Below the pieces are notes generated by a model. That model ran no database searches. It worked only from the letters and a program-made list of their open reading frames with translations, and was not told the DNA's origin. The translations under genes were made by a program, and so were the position numbers. 64,000 nucleotides of DNA from a virus (Duplodnaviria; Heunggongvirae; Uroviricota; Caudoviricetes): the IMG/VR virus record IMGVR_UViG_2687453623_000004; one strand, written 5' to 3'. Positions 1,900-39,680 of this stretch are shown piece after piece. Position 1 is the first letter of the stretch; the number at the start of each line of letters is the position of its first letter.

Positions 1900-2853
1900 A
1901 TGTCTGATTACTTAAAAGGTAAACGTGTCGTTGATCCGGTACTGACCAGTATCGCCCGTGGCTATAAAAATGCCGCATTCATCGGCGAACGTATTTTCCC
2001 CGTCGTGCTGACGGACAAGGAAGGCGTGCGTGTACCGACCTTCGGGAAAACCGCCTTTGTGGAATATGACACCGAGCGTGCCGTCGGGGCGGACAGCAAT
2101 GTTCTGGTCCGTGAAAAAACAGGCACGCTGGACCTGGTGCTGGGTGAACACGATCTGGCTGCGCCGGTGGACTATCGCGAGCAGGCGGAGTCCATGTTTA
2201 ACGAAGAGAGCAAGGCCATCCGTCGCGCCACGAATGGCGTGAACCTGCGCCGTGAACTTATCGCTGCCCGTCTGGCTCAGGATGAAAAGGTCTACCGTAC
2301 CGGGCACGTCAAAAAACTGACAGCCAGTGATCGCTGGGCCGGTGGTAAGGGGGACCCCATCGGGGTGATTGAAGCCGGTATGGAAGCGGTCCGTACGGCC
2401 ACGGGGCTGCGTCCTAACCTGATGACCATGGGGGCCGGCGTGATGGCGCTGCTGAAGTTCCACCCGGCGATTCAGGCCGCCATCGGAGCCAACGAACGCA
2501 AGCGCATCACCACAGAAATCCTGCAGGACCTCTTTCAGATCGAAGAGATCGTCATCGGTGCCCCAGTCTCCCTGCCGTCCATGAAAGCGGCAATGGATAA
2601 GAACAGCGTGCCGGCGGATATCTGGGGAGACAATCTGATGCTGCACTATGTCGGCAAACCGCAGCCGGGGGCGGACAGCGCGGACGAGAACGAGCCGTCC
2701 TTCGGCTACACCCTGCGTCGTAAGGGGATGCCTGTTGCCGACAAATACGACGGAGCCGGTGGCAAGGTGAAGTACTGCCGTTATACCGATATCTACAAAG
2801 TCGCCGTGGTTGGTGGCGATGCCGGGTATCTCATTACCGGTATCAGTAAATAA
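1900..2853 (+). CDS. major head subunit (Mu gpT-like)
   Basis: 317-aa ORF with RBS aaggagaga upstream; size and position match the Mu T capsid protein. Confidence 0.7.
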   Translation: MSDYLKGKRVVDPVLTSIARGYKNAAFIGERIFPVVLTDKEGVRVPTFGKTAFVEYDTERAVGADSNVLVREKTGTLDLVLGEHDLAAPVDYREQAESMFNEESKAIRRATNGVNLRRELIAARLAQDEKVYRTGHVKKLTASDRWAGGKGDPIGVIEAGMEAVRTATGLRPNLMTMGAGVMALLKFHPAIQAAIGANERKRITTEILQDLFQIEEIVIGAPVSLPSMKAAMDKNSVPADIWGDNLMLHYVGKPQPGADSADENEPSFGYTLRRKGMPVADKYDGAGGKVKYCRYTDIYKVAVVGGDAGYLITGISK

Positions 2854-2862
2854 GGAGGCGTT

Positions 2863-3201
2863 ATGGGAACCACTCAGCAGGTCATTCTGATCACAACCGT
2901 AACGGCAGGGGCAGCACTGGCACAGCAGCGTTTTGTCGGGGCAGATAATACCCCCTGTAAAGCCGGTGCCGCAGCGCTCGGGGTTGCCGAAGTGGATGCT
3001 GTTACCGGCGACAGCACGCCGGTGAGCGTTCTGGGCATTATTGCTGTCGAGGCCGGGGCCGCTGTCAGCCGTGGTGTGGCTGTTCAGTCAGATGCTCAGG
3101 CCAGAGCCGTGCCGCAGTCCGGCGACGGTAAATCCTGTGGTATTGCACTTGATGAAGCCGGGGGTGAAGGCGACGTCATTCGTATCCTGCGCGGGGTGTG
3201 A
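2863..3201 (+). CDS. hypothetical head-associated protein (Ala/Gly/Val-rich)
   Basis: 112-aa ORF with strong RBS (taaggagg) 6 nt upstream; tightly packed between capsid gene and gp36-like gene. Confidence 0.45.
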   Translation: MGTTQQVILITTVTAGAALAQQRFVGADNTPCKAGAAALGVAEVDAVTGDSTPVSVLGIIAVEAGAAVSRGVAVQSDAQARAVPQSGDGKSCGIALDEAGGEGDVIRILRGV

Positions 3202-3202
3202 C

Positions 3203-3649
3203 ATGTACTGCACCCTGGAGGATTTGCTTGCGCAGGTGCCGGAGCGGACGCTTATCGAGCTCACCAGTGAAGAGATGGACTTCGACTCACCTGCAACAGT
3301 GAATACCCGTGTGGTGGACAGCTGTATCCGCTATGCCGACGAGCTGATTGATGCCCATCTGCGCGGACGCTATATCCTGCCACTGGCAGAGATACCGACT
3401 GTTCTGCGGGACATTGCCATCACGCTGGTCCGTTACCGGCTCTACGCCCGCCGCCCGGAAGGTGACCTCCCGGATACGGTGAAGGATGACCACAAAGAAG
3501 CGCTGCGGCAACTCAGGGAGTTACGTGATAACAGGCTCACGCTGGGGCTGCCGTCCACTCAGAAAGATGTGCCTGAGCCTGGCGAGTTTCGTGTACGCAG
3601 TCGCCCGGCCACTTTCGGCGGTCGTGACGGTTTACTGGAGAAATACTGA
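3203..3649 (+). CDS. Mu gp36-like protein (DUF1320-type)
   Basis: In-frame ATG at 3203 two bases after the previous stop (the listed 3041 start overlaps the upstream gene); 148 aa; position and size match Mu gp36 (J). Confidence 0.5.
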   Translation: MYCTLEDLLAQVPERTLIELTSEEMDFDSPATVNTRVVDSCIRYADELIDAHLRGRYILPLAEIPTVLRDIAITLVRYRLYARRPEGDLPDTVKDDHKEALRQLRELRDNRLTLGLPSTQKDVPEPGEFRVRSRPATFGGRDGLLEKY

Positions 3650-4113
3650 TGAACGTTCTGCCCGTCCTTGATGCGGTACTGGCCCGGTTACGCGAGAAGC
3701 TGCCGCAACTGCAGGTGGAGTACTTCCCGGAGAAACCGGCTGAATATCGCCTGAACCATCCGGTTGGCGCGTTGCTGTTGAGCTATGCCGGTTCGCGCTT
3801 TGACAGGCCGGATGATACCGGTGCGGTGATCCAGTCTCAGACTATCCAGCTCTGCGTCACGGTGGTCTTCCGCCAGCTCAACGGTAAAAAAGGGGCGATT
3901 AATGTCCTGGATGCTGTCCGCCGCATTCTCGGTGGCCACACCCCGCCCGGCTGCCGCCGCCGTATCTGGCTGACCCGCGAGGTGTTTATCGGTGAAGTCA
4001 GGGGGCTGTGGCAGTACGCCCTCGACTTCGCGACTGAAAGCGTCTTTATCGAAGACAGCGATTTACCGTCCGGCCCGCTGTTAACCGAAGTGAACTATGA
4101 GGAAAGCGAGTGA
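3649..4113 (+). CDS. Mu gp37-like protein (DUF1834-type)
   Basis: 154-aa ORF whose ATG overlaps the preceding stop (ATGA coupling); size and position match Mu gp37 (K). Confidence 0.5.
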   Translation: MNVLPVLDAVLARLREKLPQLQVEYFPEKPAEYRLNHPVGALLLSYAGSRFDRPDDTGAVIQSQTIQLCVTVVFRQLNGKKGAINVLDAVRRILGGHTPPGCRRRIWLTREVFIGEVRGLWQYALDFATESVFIEDSDLPSGPLLTEVNYEESE

Positions 4114-4364
4114 TGAAAGAATACCGCTATTCCGGCCCGGCCAGCGGCGTCACGCTGTCGGACGGAACCGAAATCCTGCTCTGGCCGGGGAAGACGGTTT
4201 CCCTGCCGGAGGAGCATGACTACGTGAAGGTACTGGTGGCGCTGAAACATCTGACGCCGGTACCTGAAGAGACTAAACCCGCCGGCACACCGGCTGTGCA
4301 GTCACCAAAGCGCAGAAGCAGCAGTGACAGCGAAGTGAAAACGGAGGACACCCATGGCAGCTAA
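4110..4364 (+). CDS. small hypothetical phage protein (Mu gp38 position)
   Basis: 84-aa ORF, start overlaps the upstream stop and its end overlaps the sheath gene start; typical operon packing. Confidence 0.35.
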   Translation: MMKEYRYSGPASGVTLSDGTEILLWPGKTVSLPEEHDYVKVLVALKHLTPVPEETKPAGTPAVQSPKRRSSSDSEVKTEDTHGS

Positions 4365-5781
4365 CTATCTGCATGGTCCCGAAACCATTGAGGTGGAAAA
4401 CGGTGCCCGCCCGGTTAAAACGGTGAAATCTGCCGTTATTGGCCTGATTGGTACCGCCCCGATGGGGGATGTCAATACGCTGGTACAGTGCCTGTCTGAG
4501 AAAGACGCAGCGGCATTTGGCAGCCAGTTCACCGGCTTTACCATTCCGCAGGCGCTGGATGCGATTTATGACCATGGTGCAGGCACCGTTCTGGTCATTA
4601 ACGTCCTCGACCCGGCGAAACATAAAACGGCGATCGAGGATGAGGTGGTTACCTTTGACAAATCGACAGGGCAGGCCAGACTGGCGCATCCGGTTGTCGC
4701 TAATGTGGTGGTGAAAAACAGTGAAGGCAGCACCACCCACACGGCGAACACGGACTACCGTGTTGATGCGCAGGCGGGTGTGCTCACGAACCTGGGCAAG
4801 GCTATTGAGGCCGGTGGCAGCGTGAAGGTGAGCTATGAGTACGCGGACCCGTCGAAGGTGACTGCGGCGGACATCATCGGCGGGGTGAACAGCGCCGGAA
4901 ACCGAACCGGCATGAAGCTGCTTAACGACAGCTTCAACCTGTACGGCTATTTCGCCAAAATTCTGATTGCGCCGGTGTTCTGCACCCAGAAGAGTGTCGC
5001 AGTTGAGCTTATCGCCATGGCAGAGAAGCTGGGCGCGGTAACCTACATTGATGCGCCTGTCGGTACCACCTTTGCACAGGCTCTGGCAGGTCGTGGCCCG
5101 GAAGGCACCATCAACTTCAATACCAGCTCCGACCGCGTCCGTCTGTGCTATCCGCATGTGAAGGTATATGACCCGGTGACAAACACAGAGCGTCTGGAGC
5201 CGCTCAGCCAGCGTGCAGCAGGTCTGCGTGCCAGAGTCGATCTGGACAAGGGCTACTGGTGGTCATCCTCCAATCAGGAGATTCTGGGGATCACCGGCGT
5301 GGAGCGCCAGCTGTCCGCGATGATTGATGACCCGCAGAGTGAGGTGAACCTGCTTAACGAACAGGGGATCACCACGGTATTCAGCAGTTACGGCAGCGGC
5401 CTTCGTCTGTGGGGTAACCGGACGGCAGCATGGCCAACGGTCACCCATATGCGTAACTTTGAGAACGTTCGCCGCACCGGTGATGTGATCAACGAGTCCA
5501 TTCGTTATTTCAGCCAGCAGTACATCGACATGCCGATTACTCAGGCGCTGATTGATGCACTGACGGAGTCGGTCAACGCCTACGGTCGCAAAATGACTGG
5601 TGATGGTGCGGTACTGGGCTTCCGTTGCTGGTTTGATCCGGCCCGCAATCCGGAGACGGAGCTGGCCGCCGGGCACCTGTTGCTGAGCTACAAATATACG
5701 CCACCACCGCCGCTGGAGCGACTGACGTTTGAGACTGAGATCACCTCGGAATACCTGTTAACCCTGAAAGGGGGCAACTGA
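4354..5781 (+). CDS. contractile tail sheath protein (Mu gpL-like)
   Basis: 475-aa ORF; size, position upstream of the tube gene and sequence character match myovirus sheath proteins. Confidence 0.8.
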   Translation: MAANYLHGPETIEVENGARPVKTVKSAVIGLIGTAPMGDVNTLVQCLSEKDAAAFGSQFTGFTIPQALDAIYDHGAGTVLVINVLDPAKHKTAIEDEVVTFDKSTGQARLAHPVVANVVVKNSEGSTTHTANTDYRVDAQAGVLTNLGKAIEAGGSVKVSYEYADPSKVTAADIIGGVNSAGNRTGMKLLNDSFNLYGYFAKILIAPVFCTQKSVAVELIAMAEKLGAVTYIDAPVGTTFAQALAGRGPEGTINFNTSSDRVRLCYPHVKVYDPVTNTERLEPLSQRAAGLRARVDLDKGYWWSSSNQEILGITGVERQLSAMIDDPQSEVNLLNEQGITTVFSSYGSGLRLWGNRTAAWPTVTHMRNFENVRRTGDVINESIRYFSQQYIDMPITQALIDALTESVNAYGRKMTGDGAVLGFRCWFDPARNPETELAAGHLLLSYKYTPPPPLERLTFETEITSEYLLTLKGGN

Positions 5782-33334: not shown

Positions 33335-34525
33335 TTAATTGCTGTTAACCGAGGTGACCAGATTTGCCAGGTATTTATCGGTAATACGCTGGCGCAGGGT
33401 CAGGTTTTCAAGAGGAGGCACCGGTGTATAGTCGTAGTCGATATACAGTTTTCCGGCCTTGAGGGTTTCCGCATCGTTGGATTCTTCGCTGAACCAGCAG
33501 GTCGCATCCACGATATAGCCGTTTGTTTTCAGCTCACGGAATTTGGCATTGATGCCGTCAACGATGTCGCGAATCAGCGTTGCGGTGATGGGCTTGTCCA
33601 CCGCCCACATGTGCGCCTCAGCCATCGTGTCGGCAAGCACCTGCGCGGTGCGGGTGTAGTTTTCAAAGAGGAACAGCGGGTCATCAGAGCAGGTACGGTT
33701 ACCCCAGAAGCGGAAACCGTCACGGCGAATCAGCGTTGTGACGCCTGACTCGTTAAGCAGGTCAGCATCGGTACCGGACTCCTGCAAATCCCAGAATACA
33801 GAGGCGCTGATGCCGGTAACACCGCTTACCCCGACGTTGGACAGCGTTTTATGCCAGCCCTGCTCCTGGTCGATTTTAGCACGCAGGCCCAGTGCACGAG
33901 CGGTGGCATACGCGGTGGCGGTGGTACTGGCGACCGTATCCCATGCGAGGAAATCCGGCCAGATGACCATCAGCTCACGCTGGCTGAAATTCTGGCGGTA
34001 GGCTTTCACCTCGGAAATGGTCTTACAGCCCCATGCGCTGATATACCCGAAAGCGCGCAGCTTCTGACAGACTGATGCCAGTGCGACGGCAACCTCTTTG
34101 GTGTCCAGTCCCGGCACACCAAGAATACGCGGTTTAACACCGGTTACCGACTCCGCCGCCAGCAGGGCTTTCAGTCCGGTGTACTGACCGTTTTCGTCGG
34201 TGGTGCCGATGATATTGGAAATGGTCTGCGCAAGTTTCGTTTCTTCGTCGTCGCCGGTGCCGTCTTCCACACGCACGACAACGGTGACCGGTTTTGACTG
34301 GTCGGCGATGGCCTGCAACGATGCCGCCAGCGTGCCTTTTTTACCGGCCTTTGCAATTGCGCTCTGCACATTGGTTATCAGCACCGGTTTATTGAGGGGG
34401 AAGGTTTCCGCATCCGCATCGCTGGCCGTGCAGACCATGCCGACAATGGCCGTGGATACGGTGGAAATGACGCGGGTGCCGTCGTTAATCTCCAGCACCT
34501 GCACGCCGTGATGATAGTCACTCAT
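33335..34525 (-). CDS. FI: tail sheath protein FI
   Basis: 396-aa ORF MSDYHHGVQVLEINDGTRVISTVSTAIVGMVCTASDADAETFPLNKPVLITN… matching P2 FI. Confidence 0.9.
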   Translation of the reverse strand: MSDYHHGVQVLEINDGTRVISTVSTAIVGMVCTASDADAETFPLNKPVLITNVQSAIAKAGKKGTLAASLQAIADQSKPVTVVVRVEDGTGDDEETKLAQTISNIIGTTDENGQYTGLKALLAAESVTGVKPRILGVPGLDTKEVAVALASVCQKLRAFGYISAWGCKTISEVKAYRQNFSQRELMVIWPDFLAWDTVASTTATAYATARALGLRAKIDQEQGWHKTLSNVGVSGVTGISASVFWDLQESGTDADLLNESGVTTLIRRDGFRFWGNRTCSDDPLFLFENYTRTAQVLADTMAEAHMWAVDKPITATLIRDIVDGINAKFRELKTNGYIVDATCWFSEESNDAETLKAGKLYIDYDYTPVPPLENLTLRQRITDKYLANLVTSVNSN

Positions 34526-34620
34526 CCGTTTAACTCCGTGGTTAATGGGTGCAACTATTTTCTGTTGTGCAGAGCATGAGACGCTATTTGACCTGGCTGG
34601 CCAGTGGATGAAACAACAAA
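34526..34620 (-). promoter_or_regulatory. probable Ogr-dependent late promoter region upstream of FI
   Basis: Placement inferred from P2 organisation; dyad-like TGCAC…GTGCA elements present; exact Ogr site not resolved. Confidence 0.3.
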
Positions 34621-34621
34621 T

Positions 34622-34650
34622 AAAGAAAAGGCGGGCAATCAGCCCGCCTG
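34622..34650 (-). terminator. intrinsic terminator downstream of the Z/fun-position cargo gene (minus strand)
   Basis: Minus strand: ggcaggcgggc tgatt gcccgcc followed by ttttcttta. Confidence 0.55.
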
Positions 34651-34836
34651 CCTTGATTTGTTCTCACTCAGCTTCCAACTGACAAGTTACATAATCAAAA
34701 CGCTATTAAATCTGACAGTCTGCTTTGAGCGATGAACGGACATAACGACTCACTAATGACTAATTTGCTAACCGCTTCCGACCCAAAACTGTCGGTTGCA
34801 TGATAATTAATCCAGCAAGCAAATTCATAGTCATTG

Positions 34837-35313
34837 CTATATGTTACTGGGATTATTAAAAGGGATAATACTGGCCAATCCGTCATCAACATCAAGACCA
34901 TAGGTAACCGCTATTTCTGCCAGAGAGTTACCACACTTTTGTCGCAGTTTAAAAAGGGCTCGCTCAAGTATGGATATTTGAACAGGATGATCAAGTTGGA
35001 TAAAGTGAGGGGAGCCAACGCTGTCACAGAATTCTTGGCATGCTTTTCTCATTTTCCTTAATTGTTTTGCTAAATGTGAATCGCTCGGCAAACCTTGTAG
35101 GACTTTAGTCAATTCAGATCTAATGTTGATAACACTCGAAGTGCAATGACTAGCACCCTCCATGTCGACAGGATTGAAAAGAACGCGCTTGTCCTCAAGA
35201 AAAATGACGATCTTCTTCGCTTCGTCAGTTTCTATTATTGGAGCATTCCACTGAATCCCGAATATGGGACAGCTAAGGCCAGTAATATTTTTATAGATTT
35301 GTTCAAATTTCAA
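34837..35313 (-). CDS. hypothetical protein, accessory cargo at the P2 Z/fun position (no family recognised)
   Basis: 158-aa ORF MKFEQIYKNITGLSCPIFGIQWNAPIIETDEAKKIVIFLEDKRVLFNPVDMEGASHCTSS… in a visibly AT-rich block unlike the surrounding phage genes; own terminator downstream. Confidence 0.55.
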   Translation of the reverse strand: MKFEQIYKNITGLSCPIFGIQWNAPIIETDEAKKIVIFLEDKRVLFNPVDMEGASHCTSSVINIRSELTKVLQGLPSDSHLAKQLRKMRKACQEFCDSVGSPHFIQLDHPVQISILERALFKLRQKCGNSLAEIAVTYGLDVDDGLASIIPFNNPSNI

Positions 35314-35571
35314 AAGTCACTCCTTGGATGGACTCTGAGCATATAAAACGCCATACTGATAAACGGACTCGGTTCAAGTAATCTGTTAGATAGCATAACT
35401 CGGAACCACTGTAAAAATAGTTGTTAACATACCTAAAAGTGACAGCGGAGGCAAGATTCCCTCAGCCGGAGCGATAAATTAGGCATAAGTTATACACACA
35501 TTAGTAATAATCACTAAAGATATTCTAATTTTTTATGCCGACTTAATATGATTTCCCGTCAATCAGGTTAG

Positions 35572-35597
35572 CGTCCGCTCCTGGCACAAAGCGGACG
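35572..35597. repeat. hairpin-containing ~26-bp element, copy 1 (cgtccgctcctggcac aaa gcggacg)
   Basis: Perfect 7-bp stem CGTCCGC/GCGGACG; the first 16 nt recur exactly at 36495-36510. Confidence 0.6.
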
Positions 35598-35753
35598 AGG
35601 TAACTGAGCTAAAGGTCCGCTGTGAGCGAAAAGTGGACATTAGAGTTACAAAAGTAAGTTTAAATCATCCAAAATATTACAATATCCTTATCTATCTGAT
35701 ATTGTTATGATAAAAAGTTCCTGAATATAATCGATAGTAGGTGGTTATTTTCC

Positions 35754-36131
35754 ATGAAATCAATTTTAGAGGTTTTTACTCAAGGAAATACTAAAGAAAA
35801 ACTGGCTGTTATCGCTGATCTCACAACCATTGCGGGAATATCGATAGCAACTATTATTGCTGGTTTGTTAACCCTAGTTGCAAAAACAGATAAACTAGAT
35901 GTTGGAAATCTGTTTGGAGTTGTCATAATATCTCTGCTCGGATTGGCTGGTGTTTGCTGTTTTATGGCCCTATTTATTTGGGTTATAACCCAAATGTCTA
36001 AACCATGGGGAACACCTCGGGGGATTCAGTCCTTAGTTAAGTGTGCTATTTCCCTTATCTTTATCTGTATTTTTTTGCTGGCTGTCTTTACATTTTATGA
36101 GGTTATTTCTTCGATGAGAATACTCTATTGA
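35754..36131 (+). CDS. small multi-pass membrane protein, accessory cargo (no family recognised)
   Basis: 125-aa ORF with RBS ggtgg upstream; three or four hydrophobic helices (…IAGISIATIIAGLLTLVA…, …GVVIISLLGLAGVCCFMALFIWVI…, …AISLIFICIFLLAVFTFY…). Confidence 0.55.
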   Translation: MKSILEVFTQGNTKEKLAVIADLTTIAGISIATIIAGLLTLVAKTDKLDVGNLFGVVIISLLGLAGVCCFMALFIWVITQMSKPWGTPRGIQSLVKCAISLIFICIFLLAVFTFYEVISSMRILY

Positions 36132-36494
36132 ATATAAAATCAGCTCTCATAACTTAAAAGAGGCCTTCTATAAGGTCTCTTTTAATTGAATTACCATCCT
36201 ATTAATCCAGAGAATCTTTATCATCACAAAATAACAAACATTGGAGATAATTAATAAACTAATCATCCTCAAGATCATCTTTATCTTTACAAAGCGAGTG
36301 TCAGTATTCATCCTAACATCAAGTGCAGAATGGAGTATTTTATGTATCTTCATGCCGCTTGCACGCTTTATCTCGTTTTTTGTAGGTGGTGTACTATCTC
36401 TAAATGACCATTTATATGGTGTAAGACTACTGACTTTAGAGGGCTATGATCTACATAGTTCTTCTAACCATTATTCTCCAAATAAACTTTACAA

Positions 36495-36520
36495 CGTCCG
36501 CTCCTGGCACGGAACGGACA
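36495..36520. repeat. hairpin-containing ~26-bp element, copy 2 (cgtccgctcctggcac ggaa cggac)
   Basis: Direct repeat of copy 1; together they bracket the membrane-protein gene (~0.9 kb). Confidence 0.6.
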
Positions 36521-36580
36521 GCCTGATTAGGTTTTACTCTGTGCCATAGATGAGTAATCTCATACCAGAGCTAATACGAT

Positions 36581-37105
36581 TTATTGCGGCATTTCTGGCC
36601 ATTCTATATCCGGAGCATTTTCCGGCTGAACGCGATTCAGTAGCACACGGTATTTTTTCCAGTGTGTCAGGCTTAACTTTTCTTCCTCGGTAGCCATATC
36701 TAAATCGACAGCATCCTGCAGAGTGCCAATAATTTCACCGGCATATGCAATCTGCTCTTTCTTCTGAGACTCCGCCGCTCTGACAAGTGCATCATGCTCT
36801 GCATTCTCATCATTCACCCACGCATTTCCGTTCCATTTCTGATAATCCCCATCCGGGGAAATGGCTGTCACGTCTGGAGGTAATGCACCAAGTTCAGAAA
36901 TATAAATGGCTGCTCCCGTTTTCGTTTCGTAGACAGTCTTTCCGCGATGATCTTCCATCAACTCCCATTTCATTTCATCTGCATTGAAAACGGCTGCATA
37001 ACCAGCAGGAATATCAGGTGGTGCAATATCTGTACTGTTTGCAGGCAGACCTGTATGCGGCGGAATATATGCATCACTTTCGCCAATAAACTCATTGGTT
37101 GCGTA
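36581..37105 (-). pseudogene. G: tail fibre assembly gene G, 3' fragment (175 codons, no start codon), separated from its 5' end by an IS element
   Basis: Frame open from TAA at 37106-37108 down to the stop at 36581; encodes …[57 protein letters not shown]…DIEWPEMPQ, the conserved Tfa body. Confidence 0.8.
37093..37099. repeat. 7-bp target-site duplication (CATTGGT), copy flanking the lower-coordinate IS end
   Basis: cattggt immediately precedes the IS terminus tgcgtatt… at 37100; identical heptamer follows the other terminus at 39681-39687. Confidence 0.7.
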
Positions 37106-37184
37106 TTACCGTGAAGGAGATCGGTGAGTAACATCGATGGAGATCGGTTCGTGTCACTTTCACAGAACCGTTTTTAAATTACCT

Positions 37185-37934
37185 TCACTGATCTCCTTCG
37201 GTCAACGGAGATTGTATTTTCCGCATTGATTCTCCTTTAAGTTCGATCTTGATACTGCCATGAACCAGTCGATCTAGGATGGCATCCGCATGTGTGGAGT
37301 CTCCGATCATTTTGTACCAGTTTTCCACCGGCAACTGGCTCACTACGATGATTGAGCCTCGTTGGTACATCAGATCCACTATTTCCAGCAGGTCGCTACG
37401 CTGTTCTGATGAGAGAGGTTCCAGCCCCCAGTCATCCAGAAGCAGCAGATCGCTATTATTCAGCCTGGTCAAAAGTTTGCTGTATCTTCCATCAGCATGC
37501 CCCTGATAGCACTGTTCCATCAGCGCTTTAAGGCGATAATAGTAGACCTTGTATCCCTGTCGGCAGGCATTATGACCAAGTGCACATGCCAGGAACGTTT
37601 TACCGCTGCCGGTGGCCCCGGTCAGTAAAATATTTTGTTTCAGGGTTAACCAGTTTCCCTGACTGAGTGAACGGATGAGGGCCCTGTCCAGCCCTCTATT
37701 GTTACGATAATCCAGCTTTGATAACTCAGCATTAAGTCTGAACCGTGCATGTTTGATCAGACGCTCTGCCTTCCTGTTTTCACGGCAGGTTAGTTCTTCT
37801 GCTGTCAGTAATGACAGGCGTTCTTCGAAGCCCAGCTCCTGGTATGTGCCCGGTTGAGCAAGTTGCTTTTTAAGCGCATCACGGAAGCCGGTGAGTTTAA
37901 GTGCGGTCAGTTGTTCGTAAAGATGATTCATCAT
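37185..37934 (-). CDS. istB: IS21-family transposition helper ATPase IstB
   Basis: 249-aa ORF with Walker A motif (LLTGATGSGKTFLACALG) and Walker B-like LLLLDDWG. Confidence 0.9.
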   Translation of the reverse strand: MMNHLYEQLTALKLTGFRDALKKQLAQPGTYQELGFEERLSLLTAEELTCRENRKAERLIKHARFRLNAELSKLDYRNNRGLDRALIRSLSQGNWLTLKQNILLTGATGSGKTFLACALGHNACRQGYKVYYYRLKALMEQCYQGHADGRYSKLLTRLNNSDLLLLDDWGLEPLSSEQRSDLLEIVDLMYQRGSIIVVSQLPVENWYKMIGDSTHADAILDRLVHGSIKIELKGESMRKIQSPLTEGDQ

Positions 37935-37945
37935 TGGATCCCGTA

Positions 37946-39487
37946 TCAGTGGTAATACTCACTGCCGCGTACGTTTTCGTGTTCCATCGTGGATAACAGA
38001 TCTGGTTTTGGATCCTGAACAGGTTGTTTATCCAGACCTTTTTCCAGGATCGATTTAATACCTGACAGACGCCATACCTTTGTTTTCAGAGCTCTTGCAC
38101 ATGCTGCATTAAGTCTGGCTTTACTGTATTTTTTATGAAGGTTCAGGAGTCCAAGGCAGAAGCGATAGCTTTGTTCCGGATGTGGACGAGAGTTCAGTAT
38201 ATGAAGCACATAACTATGAGTTTCACTGCCTATGTGCCCCGCCCATTCCAGAAGACGCTCTGGCGTCCAGGTGGCATGCTGTCGATGAGCTTCAGGCATG
38301 TGCTCGTTGCGGGTACTGTAGCCATAAGTACGCTTGCGCGGGTGCACAGCAACCTCCTGCCCCTGATTGAAGAGTCTTACCAGTTCTCCGGAGATCCATG
38401 CTTCCAGTTGCTGGCCTAACAGCGAACATGGAACCGAGTAGTAATGTTTGTCGATTTCCACGTGGTAATCGGCATGAACTCTGACTTTCTTCACCAGGGT
38501 GTAACTGTAACTGGCTTCAGGAAGAGGCTTCAGTGCGGGTTTATCAAGCTGGATGAAGAGTTCTGCACGTGAATAACCCAACTTCTGCATTATTTTGTTA
38601 TTCAGTCTTTCCAGCAACTCCCGAATGCGCTGATTAAGCGATGCAAGGCTGTAGAAGATCTCATGCCTGATTCGGGCCATGATCCAGCGTTCAACAACCT
38701 GAACGCCAACTTCAGCTTTGGCTTTATCTTTCGGTTTACGTGGCCGCGCAGGCAAAACTGCGACATTATAATGCTCAAGCATCTGCTGGTAGGTAGGGTT
38801 AACGTCAGGATCATACTTACATGCCCTGGATGTGGCGCTTTTCAGATTGTCCGGAACAACAAGTTCAGGAACGCCACCCAACCACTGGAAGCAGCGAACA
38901 TGACTCATCACCCAGTCTTCAAGCTGCTGAGACCAGGTGGCCTCTGCCCATGTGTAACTTGATGCCCCGAGAACAGCTACGATGACCTGAGCAGTTCTTA
39001 TTTCTCCGGTCTCAGGGTCGGTAACGCCAACGGTAGGTCCACAGTAATCAACGAAAAGTTTTTCGCCAGCTTTATGTACCTGACGCATTGATGGTGAAGT
39101 GGTTTTGAGCCATTCACGGTACATCCGGCAGTAATGGTTATAGCTGTAAAAACCGCCTGGATTACGCTCACAGTATTCTTCCCAGAGTAGCTGCAGCGTC
39201 ACGCATTTATTACGCAGTTCCCGGTGTACTGTAGCCCAGTCAGGCAGAGAGTGCTTCTTCATCTTAACCTGGGTCTGAAGGAACGCATGTTTTAGTTTTG
39301 TATCATCCCATCCTGTAGGTAAGGGCCACTGCTTTATGCCAAGTTGAGCCGCCCGATTAGCATATCTGGATACAACGGAAGGGGAGATTGCAAGACTACG
39401 ACCAATTTGTCGATGGCTGAGTCCAACACCGTATTTAAGCCTAAGAATTTCTTTAAGTTTTCTCATAGAAATTGGAACTGTTGGCAT
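37946..39487 (-). CDS. istA: IS21-family transposase IstA
   Basis: 513-aa ORF with N-terminal HTH (…LSHRQIGRSLAISPSVVSRY…) and DDE-type catalytic core; followed 12 nt later by istB. Confidence 0.9.
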   Translation of the reverse strand: MPTVPISMRKLKEILRLKYGVGLSHRQIGRSLAISPSVVSRYANRAAQLGIKQWPLPTGWDDTKLKHAFLQTQVKMKKHSLPDWATVHRELRNKCVTLQLLWEEYCERNPGGFYSYNHYCRMYREWLKTTSPSMRQVHKAGEKLFVDYCGPTVGVTDPETGEIRTAQVIVAVLGASSYTWAEATWSQQLEDWVMSHVRCFQWLGGVPELVVPDNLKSATSRACKYDPDVNPTYQQMLEHYNVAVLPARPRKPKDKAKAEVGVQVVERWIMARIRHEIFYSLASLNQRIRELLERLNNKIMQKLGYSRAELFIQLDKPALKPLPEASYSYTLVKKVRVHADYHVEIDKHYYSVPCSLLGQQLEAWISGELVRLFNQGQEVAVHPRKRTYGYSTRNEHMPEAHRQHATWTPERLLEWAGHIGSETHSYVLHILNSRPHPEQSYRFCLGLLNLHKKYSKARLNAACARALKTKVWRLSGIKSILEKGLDKQPVQDPKPDLLSTMEHENVRGSEYYH

Positions 39488-39680
39488 AGGTATCCTTTAC
39501 CGGAATGGCAAAAGATACAGATCAACACACCTGTGAAGTTCCAATAACATTGATGGAGATCACTGAATAACAAAATGAGTCAAAAGTGATCTCCATCGAT
39601 GTTATTCAGCGATCTGTTCAAATGTTATTACCCGATCTCGATGGAAGTTATTGAGTGATCTCCTTTCATGAAAATACGCA

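Follow-up and report, generated by a model that had tools for sequence, protein, structure and literature searches.

Palindromic sites of two classes border exchangeable cargo in the P2 G-FI hotspot and may form part of a cassette-exchange system

What allows unrelated genes to replace one another so rapidly in one short interval of P2-like prophages? The hotspots of these prophages rank among the main reservoirs of anti-phage systems in Enterobacteria. According to recent large surveys, P2 hotspot cargo is swapped extremely fast and is common to unrelated islands and plasmids, while the mechanism of exchange with other mobile elements was left open, with transposons and homologous or illegitimate recombination listed (PMC13586616, published in 2026). 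We addressed this question in a 64,000-nucleotide stretch of the virus record IMGVR_UViG_2687453623_000004 (hereafter, the window), which is an Escherichia coli P2-like prophage whose hotspot region is 100% identical to that of strain LS4. A first-pass annotation had pointed to two direct copies of a 16-mer, CGTCCGCTCCTGGCAC, forming hairpins on either side of a membrane protein gene, and had proposed that they mark a recombination-delivered cassette or are simply terminator-like structures. Here we report that the 16-mer belongs to a family of four related 24-bp palindromic elements, that such elements coincide with the borders of exchangeable cargo, and that a small tyrosine recombinase is encoded close to them in other genomes. 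Judging from sequence comparisons, the elements are probably double-stranded, core-type site-specific recombination sites of two non-interchangeable classes, not functional hairpins, and would belong to a cassette-exchange system.

Anatomy of the palindromic sites

The elements sit in an AT-rich stretch (about 34550-36550, 30 to 42% GC) between the tail fibre assembly gene tfa, the equivalent of P2 G, and the tail sheath gene FI, which is the classical Z/fun hotspot. Both copies of the 16-mer were confirmed as exact on the + strand, at 35572-35587 and 36495-36510, each followed by a complementary arm as described, and no third copy was found in the window with up to three mismatches allowed. 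The 125-amino-acid open reading frame at 35754-36131 is indeed the only gene between them. The element itself measures 24 bp instead of the approximately 26 bp first claimed. We named the elements after their centre as read on the + strand of the window, TGGCAC for B and GAGCGA for A, and identified two of each. The two B-type sites (B' and B) correspond to the annotated repeats, while both A sites and the first cassette of the array, encoding a DUF6650 protein, had been missed. What had been taken for one unit at 35572-36520 actually reads B'-spacer-A'-cargo 2-B, and the neighbouring DUF6650 gene makes up a second cassette.

Along the + strand, the order is FI, a terminator, A, cargo 1, B', an 18-nt spacer, A', cargo 2, B, and tfa. 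The A site on the FI side (34718-34741, GTCTGCTTT-GAGCGA-TGAACGGAC) was recovered by a repeat finder and by comparison of P2-like loci; its outer (left) arm and the flank ending in AAATCTGACA belong to the backbone, and its inner arm moves with cargo 1. The internal B' site (35573-35596, GTCCGCTCC-TGGCAC-AAAGCGGAC) contains the first copy of the 16-mer. It is separated by the spacer (GAGGTAACTGAGCTAAAG, 35597-35614) from the internal A' site (35615-35638, GTCCGCTGT-GAGCGA-AAAGTGGAC), which was identified by the repeat finder and by junction alignment, and together they form a composite inter-cassette junction. The spacer core ACTGAGCT.AAG is kept in other arrays, island spacers reading for instance gatatcactgagctgaag. 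Finally, the B site on the tfa side (36496-36519, GTCCGCTCC-TGGCAC-GGAACGGAC) contains the second copy of the 16-mer, and its outer (right) arm and the flank starting with AGCCTGATTAGG are again backbone.

All four sites share the same layout, with 7-bp inverted half-sites (GTCCGCT and AGCGGAC) around a 10-bp centre that includes six class-specific invariant bases. The centres of A and B show a conserved difference at four of these six positions, and B and A have outer flanks (AATCTGACA and TGTCAGATT, respectively) that are inverted copies of one another. Inverted half-sites around a short centre are the layout of tyrosine-recombinase core sites, and the two inverted half-sites and the 6- to 10-bp central region expected of such a site are both present here.

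Taken on its own, the 16-mer is weak evidence, as 8 of 100 shuffled sequences gave at least two matches at up to three mismatches, and we estimate that roughly 0.5 exact 16-mer pairs would be expected in 64 kb. Over its full extent, the repeat measures 25 nt, and the family pattern was found four times in the 2.3-kb hotspot but neither in the other 61.7 kb of the window nor in 490 kb of P2 tail-gene DNA. The significance of the repeat thus comes from this extension, from the two further family members (the A sites), and from the confinement of the pattern to the hotspot.

Cassette borders and cassette reuse

We compared 86 P2-like loci, comprising 80 IMG/VR loci with an FI protein together with several annotated phages and genomes. 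In 49 of them the backbone half of A was present, in 49 the backbone half of B beside tfa, and in 45 both, with the A half at a fixed distance (-216/-217) from the ATG of FI. After the loci had been collapsed to 32 to 33 unrelated cargo flanks, conservation followed a step function: the backbone flank, the outer arm, and the centre were conserved at 90% or more, while the cargo was at background (about 35%). The cargo-borne inner arm (GTCCGCT or AGCGGAC) was nevertheless 70 to 90% conserved despite the cargoes being unrelated. This step-like profile indicates that each different cargo brings its own conserved half-site. The cargo between B and A ranged from 842 to 4,103 bp (median, 1,211 bp), most P2 hotspots holding a single cassette.

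We then aligned the junctions. The outer arm was found to follow the context, being GTCTGCTTT where the site adjoins the P2 backbone but, within composite junctions, GTCCGCTGT or GTCCGCTGA, while the centre and the inner arm stayed with the cargo. For instance, in two single-cassette prophages (L085 and L084) the centre and inner arm of A' are joined to the backbone outer arm GTCTGCTTT. When the same cargo occurs in a new context, the sequences switch at the boundary between outer arm and centre; when different cargoes occupy the same context, they switch at the boundary between centre and inner arm. Combined with the conservation profile, these alignments suggest that the exchange point lies within the invariant centre.

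The cassettes of the window were recovered in other arrangements and other replicons. In KSC207 (L085), cargo 2 is the sole cargo (G-B-cargo 2-A-FI), and a non-P2 island of strain 181.1 (L086) carries cargo 1 along with both of its sites, A and B, as well as an A-18 nt-B junction. A 79-kb non-P2 phage contig (L229) harbors six sites in 3 kb (2245-5310), arranged as B-cargo 2-A-spacer-B-cargo 1-A-spacer-B-cargo 3 and neighboured by Peptidase_M78, ORF6N, and GIY-YIG genes. Its cargo 2 protein is identical to that of the window, its cargo 1 protein is the same at every compared residue, and its third cassette matches the cargo-side flank of another P2-like locus (L032). The S88-type P2 hotspot (L084, 3501-5932; L051) reads B, DUF5677, a 195-amino-acid tyrosine recombinase, cargo 2, and A; internal sites are absent. 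The loci of tRNA-island type (L088-L091) have sites between an iron-uptake operon, a reverse-transcriptase module, and hypothetical genes. The terminal boundary of their arrays, B followed by TGTCAGATTAG beside a GTPase-family gene, is the one also found on the G side of P2, and comparison of L088 with L091 revealed one cassette cleanly inserted at the terminal B site. Tandem cassettes between sites are therefore reused in different orders, as seen in the window, L229, L086, L085, and L088 versus L091. As described for the flanking repeats of P2 Z/fun, the repeats between G and FI flank AT-rich cargo, and the same repeats flank homologous genes outside P2.

To define the distribution of the sites, we searched for the exact 16-mer and for the composite junction, using as query the 80 nt at 35566-35645. 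The 16-mer was found in 74 IMG/VR contigs, with a P2 FI gene nearby in only 14. The junction was present in 1,063 of 5,426 complete E. coli genomes (about 20%), at one to three places each and always in unannotated intergenic DNA. It was also found in 536 plasmids, mainly of Klebsiella, Enterobacter, and Pantoea, between metabolic or defence modules. Only two isolated phages carried it, since most P2 hotspots hold a single cassette. On the Enterobacter IncF plasmid pECLA (L172, 8001-8068), the junction separates unrelated modules, with an SDR oxidoreductase gene on one side and an aldo/keto-reductase operon on the other; on a Klebsiella pneumoniae IncF plasmid (L173, 8001-8062), the junction region is accompanied by dGTPase, QueH, and NACHT genes. 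No recombinase was found within 8 kb of either junction.

A candidate recombinase and the proposed exchange mechanism

A 200-amino-acid protein annotated only as a site-specific integrase (e.g., WP_001305361) is encoded within a few kilobases of the sites in three of the island loci (L088, L089, and L091), is present as a fragment in L086, and lies inside the S88 P2 hotspot, the copies in the hotspot and in the islands being 92% identical. Its only recognizable domain is the Pfam Phage_integrase catalytic domain (E 5e-19). By our own reading of an alignment (A2), the motifs LRGCDL, QQKTG, HSxRRT, LLGH, and VRY fit the R-K-HxxR-H-Y catalytic set of tyrosine recombinases. By curated cut-offs, the protein belongs to none of the IntI, Xer, and FimB/E families; a sequence search returned no solved relative, and we found no specific name for it. 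The gene is present in 863 of 5,426 E. coli genomes (about 16%). Scanning one genome per species, we recovered more than 547 relatives at 61 to 97% identity, ranging from Enterobacterales to Pseudomonas, Burkholderiales, Alteromonadales, and a few non-proteobacterial metagenome-assembled genomes.

Sites were present within 10 kb of the recombinase gene in all 12 enterobacterial loci whose protein is at least 86% identical (32 matches versus 0.6 in shuffled sequences) and in 16 of 68 more distant loci (28 matches versus 1.6). In the distant loci, the arms are GGCCGCT and AGCGGCC, and two classes of centre persist (cggcca/tggccg and gggtcg/cgaccc). In some, for instance L129, the sites directly bracket the recombinase gene (at -106 and +637 in L129); such direct flanking in distant taxa is only suggestive. 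A generalised palindrome scan of GC-rich genomes was too noisy to be used. The idea of a recombination-delivered cassette thus holds in outline and on comparative grounds, given the breakpoints inside the elements, the presence of the cassettes in other positions and replicons, and the linkage to a small tyrosine recombinase.

Beside the recombinase in the islands (L088, 9129-10229; L091, 4858-5958) lies a 366-amino-acid gene whose product matches the PADLOC candidate defence family HEC-08 over its full length (E 1e-173) and also DUF3644. L088 and L091 share a conserved module made up of the recombinase, the 366-amino-acid gene, and a B site whose left flank is ATGGGTTGGACA. In L086, the flank ATGGGTTGGACA and the B site recur, with an IS3 insertion in place of the 366-amino-acid gene.

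We propose the following mechanism. In the P2 G-FI hotspot, every cargo module is bounded by A towards FI and by B towards G, and tandem modules are joined by the conserved B-18 nt-A junction; the window carries such a two-cassette array (A - DUF6650 - B'-spacer-A' - membrane protein - B). The two classes are set by the middle 6 bp of the centre, and we infer from the conserved difference between the centres that no recombination takes place between A and B. Two like sites (B with B' or A with A'), in contrast, would recombine to release a circle carrying one cargo and one composite junction, which could enter at any like site in another phage, island, or plasmid. A double exchange at A and B could instead swap cargo without a circular intermediate. 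In the window, recombination between A' and A would yield exactly the single-cassette arrangement of KSC207. The most likely candidate for the enzyme is the 200-amino-acid, catalytic-domain-only recombinase, encoded within arrays elsewhere; as it is not in the window, the sites there would be acted on in trans or be currently idle. The half-site AG(C/T)GGACA also resembles the arm-site consensus of P2-type integrases, tgTGGaCa, quoted in PMC3448106, the inner arm of A' (35630-35640) reading AAAGTGGACAT. This likeness could be a coincidence, and P2 Int is unlikely to be the sole partner of the sites, as these are also found on plasmids and non-P2 elements.

Several observations weigh against this mechanism. 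A tblastn search of the window found no recombinase gene, and the gene is near a site in only 1 of 42 P2 hotspots and 3 of the 74 contigs with the 16-mer, so that the recombinase could simply be a frequent cargo. Among the distant taxa, only about a quarter of the recombinase loci have recognisable sites, and under a strict definition a site lies immediately upstream of the gene in 5 of 80 loci and immediately downstream in 4 of 80. The crossover can be resolved only to the arm/centre level, since sites of one class have nearly the same centre. An empty hybrid site, in which the outer flank of B is fused to that of A, was not found when IMG/VR was searched with the exact pattern. In S88, homology to the window stops at about 36172, inside the hairpin that follows the stop codon of cargo 2, indicating that some hotspot joins are illegitimate and not site specific. 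Finally, the proposed system leaves the role of having two site classes and a conserved spacer unexplained.

These points leave a minor but real chance that the elements are conserved linker or boundary sequences, e.g., for the binding of regulatory or nucleoid proteins, that exchange needs no dedicated site-specific recombinase and takes place at 24- to 66-bp islands of identity by recombination of the homologous or short-homology kind (RecA, phage Red/RecET-like, or illegitimate), and that the recombinase is a common cargo. The recombinase is missing from most arrays (the window, 41 of 42 P2 hotspots, and the two plasmid loci), an invariant centre that hides the crossover is compatible with short-homology recombination at the conserved 24 to 66 bp, other joins in the same hotspot are illegitimate, and homologous and illegitimate recombination are among the mechanisms considered in the 2026 analysis (NAR; PMC13586616). 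Contiguous identity between partner sites is short, however, with arms conserved at 70 to 90% and a centre of 6 to 10 bp. RecA usually needs about 20 to 30 bp of identity, and the partner sites fall below that. Moreover, the inverted 7-bp half-sites, the two centre classes, and the constant relative orientation have the look of tyrosine-recombinase core sites, this architecture is retained with altered arms beside the recombinase in distant taxa, and the linkage in 12 of 12 enterobacterial loci speaks against exchange by homology only. We consider it improbable that the elements are transcription or RNA signals, that is, terminators, insulators, or 3'-end-stabilising stem-loops that isolate morons from late-operon read-through and travel with the cargo. 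REP-like hairpins are known to stabilise mRNA 3' ends, the B site on the G side lies about 60 nt past the tfa stop codon, and both B elements fold well as minus-strand (late-sense) RNA (-18.9 and -20 kcal/mol, z of about -3.6). Yet none of the A/B elements has a T-tract, and a terminator scan called only the canonical intrinsic terminator between site A and FI (34629-34649, - strand, AGGCGGGCTGATTGCCCGCCT followed by TTTCTTTATT), whose presence makes the elements unneeded for termination; we thus rejected the terminator-like interpretation of the first-pass annotation. In addition, the sites flank the cargo on both sides whatever the orientation of its gene, cargo 2 has a promoter-like site and a hairpin of its own, and a signal function leaves the half-outer, half-inner composite structure of the sites unexplained.

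The description of the elements as hairpins is itself doubtful. Among 111 distinct elements, arm positions 1 to 7 pair only because they match the consensus, positions 8 and 9 pair at chance, and observed pairing equals that of shuffled arms at nearly every position. Conservation of positions 1 to 7, with positions 8 and 9 at chance and no covariation, is what is expected of protein half-sites. The backbone A element is not a stable hairpin as single-stranded DNA (-1.6 kcal/mol, z +0.5), and Rfam gave no match over any of the four elements at E values up to 5; given the lack of covariation and the weak folding of backbone A, we rejected a selected hairpin structure. This also bears on the idea, to which we attach little probability, that the sites are single-stranded DNA substrates, either as an attC-like folded B-spacer-A junction or as subterminal hairpins of an IS200/IS605-type (HUH transposase) element. 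The four arms of the composite junction share one consensus, and the junction could formally fold into one long, imperfect hairpin that has two stems, leaves the centre unpaired, and is capped by an 18-nt apical loop; in our reading, it would resemble a folded attC (R box, unpaired spacer, L box, variable loop), and cassette arrays separated by imperfect palindromes are integron-like. As single-stranded DNA, however, the junction prefers two separate small hairpins of modest energy. Structure covariation and a GTTRRRY-type R box are both lacking, the match to the integron-integrase model is far below cut-off (E 0.006), no HUH or IS200-family gene was seen in the arrays examined, and the cassette genes lie in both orientations with their own promoters. 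It is hardly credible that the repeat is a chance match or a generic, chromosome-wide palindrome of the repetitive extragenic palindromic (REP) or bacterial interspersed mosaic element (BIME) type unconnected with cassette borders. One 16-mer repeated in 64 kb is statistically unremarkable by itself, but the family pattern matched four times in 2.3 kb and never in 550 kb of control DNA. The first-pass annotation had named a REP-like, chromosome-wide distribution as what would speak against a cassette; the genome census instead gave one to three copies per E. coli genome, not hundreds, and the sites were at cargo borders in every locus inspected. On the basis of this census and the control-DNA scan, we rejected a REP-like repeat or chance match.

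Beyond the recombination sites of the hotspot itself, we tentatively suggest that the A/B sites and the recombinase might constitute an uncharacterised cassette-exchange system that is widespread in Proteobacteria and integron-like in outcome, that gives each cassette two heterospecific core sites on double-stranded DNA, a natural cassette-exchange design, that uses a composite B-18 nt-A junction, and that moves defence, virulence, and metabolic modules among P2 and other prophage hotspots, tRNA-linked islands, and conjugative plasmids. If true, this would explain mechanistically how hotspot cargo is exchanged so rapidly among mobile elements that are otherwise unrelated. The two-class 24-bp site, the conserved junction, and the candidate recombinase, which is also present in many other genera, offer a testable handle on hotspot exchange, and site logic and candidate enzyme together could account for the traffic of accessory and defence genes from one mobile element to another. 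If confirmed, cassette borders would become predictable from sequence, aiding the delimitation of new defence or virulence modules, and the A/B site pair could be used as a natural cassette-exchange tool. For the window alone, the significance is modest, as it represents one more repeat-bounded P2 hotspot, here with two cassettes.

Known systems and the surroundings of the sites

Flanking repeats at this locus have been described before. A 2022 review (PMC8987985) credits Nilsson et al. 2004 (Nilsson, Karlsson & Haggard-Ljungquist, Mol Biol Evol 21:1) with inverted repeats flanking fun. As summarised in that review, these repeats lie at the same locus (between G and FI), they were thought in the same way to enable site-specific exchange between phages and bacterial genomes, and they were similarly linked to islands of pathogenic enterobacteria. 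Two later hotspot papers (PMC9122126 and PMC13586616) make no mention of repeats, hairpins, or a hotspot recombinase, and describe neither the two site classes nor the composite 66-bp junction, the 7-bp half-sites with a 10-bp centre, or the candidate recombinase. Literature searches on the combination of recombinase and sites, and on the sequence of the sites, returned nothing relevant in the library covered. This kind of element is thus known but obscure and mechanistically uncharacterised, the window contributing a case with two cassettes. As far as the 2004 study can be judged from the review's summary, what looks new is the two-class architecture, the composite junction, the wide distribution, and the candidate recombinase.

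Integrons resemble the arrangement described here in having a tyrosine recombinase, tandem small-gene cassettes between imperfect palindromic sites, reordered cassettes, and expected circular intermediates. The recombinase here, however, has 200 amino acids and only a catalytic domain and is not an IntI. The cassettes have their own promoters, both orientations, and two heterotypic sites each, and there is no fixed intI-attI-Pc platform, the arrays being located in phage, island, and plasmid hotspots. Membership in the integrons was rejected on the basis of the TIGR02249 match (E 0.006, 15.9 bits against a cut-off of 265) and the lack of an attC consensus, with neither R''/L''...L'/R' boxes (GTTRRRY) nor pairing beyond conservation. 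The pdif modules of Acinetobacter plasmids are built on XerC/XerD sites, the dif sequence being GGTGCGCATAA-TGTATA-TTATGTTAAAT. They likewise consist of discrete cargo modules with short sites of two inverted arms and a 6-bp centre, scattered over plasmids and reshuffled between replicons. By eye, the arms found here (GTCCGCT) look unlike those of this dif sequence, and the candidate enzyme is a dedicated small recombinase instead of the host XerCD. Furthermore, pdif sites alternate by orientation, whereas the sites described here all point the same way and alternate between classes A and B.

Recombinase-mediated cassette exchange with heterospecific lox or FRT sites is an artificial engineering practice. 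It too places cargo between like-armed sites with different centres, so that a double exchange swaps the cargo and its own ends cannot excise it, but in our case the incompatibility of A and B is proposed from the conserved centre difference only. The candidate recombinase shares with FimB and FimE a length of about 200 amino acids and the lack of a separate N-terminal core-binding domain. The sequence relation is nevertheless weak (PRK09871, E 8e-6, 25 bits against a cut-off of 222), and the Fim enzymes invert a switch between inverted 9-bp repeats, whereas the sites here are direct around the cargo. Like REP/BIME elements and intrinsic terminators, the sites are short GC-rich intergenic palindromes; they differ in number (one to three per genome versus hundreds), in the lack of a T-tract, in sequence, and in being tied to cargo borders.

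With respect to the late operon, cargo 1 is in sense and cargo 2 in antisense orientation. Cargo 1 (cassette span, about 34742-35572) is a gene for a 158-amino-acid DUF6650 protein (34837-35313, - strand; PF20355, E 2e-16; phrog_29952). Cargo 2 (cassette span, about 35639-36495; gene at 35754-36131, + strand) encodes the predicted membrane protein (phrog_4155), for which a Pfam search found no family. It is preceded by a sigma-70-like promoter, TTGTTA-18-TATAAT (35702-35731, 10 of 12 matches), 23 nt upstream of the ATG, and followed by a hairpin with a 14-bp inverted repeat (I11; 36154-36185, 93% complementary) that begins 23 nt past the stop codon; from these features, cargo 2 looks like a self-contained moron. 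PADLOC gave no defence match for either cargo protein of the window.

The hotspot is anchored on the right-hand side by FI (33335-34525, - strand), which is conserved and in late-gene orientation, and on the left-hand side by the conserved tfa gene, of which the 3' part is at 36581-36973 (- strand). A sub-threshold match to Rfam IS009 (RF02111) lies inside tfa (36618-36794, - strand; 40 bits against a gathering score of 117, E 3e-7). Upstream, tfa is interrupted by a 2,580-bp IS21-family element (37101-39680), which comprises istA (37946-39487, - strand) and istB (37185-37934, - strand), is bordered by an 8-bp target duplication (CATTGGTT), and splits the 192-amino-acid tail fibre assembly gene about 19 codons from its start. 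An IMG/VR contig that is otherwise identical (L006) has the gene uninterrupted, so this prophage is probably defective for tail fibre assembly. In P2 relatives lacking the hotspot, a sequence similar to the terminator at 34629-34649 was read just past the stop codon of tfa (G) in L045. Many P2-like prophages without the A/B hotspot (L008-L016, L035, L041, L044, and others; E. coli hits H53-H57) carry a gene annotated as recombinase family protein directly upstream of FI, which may be invertase-like.

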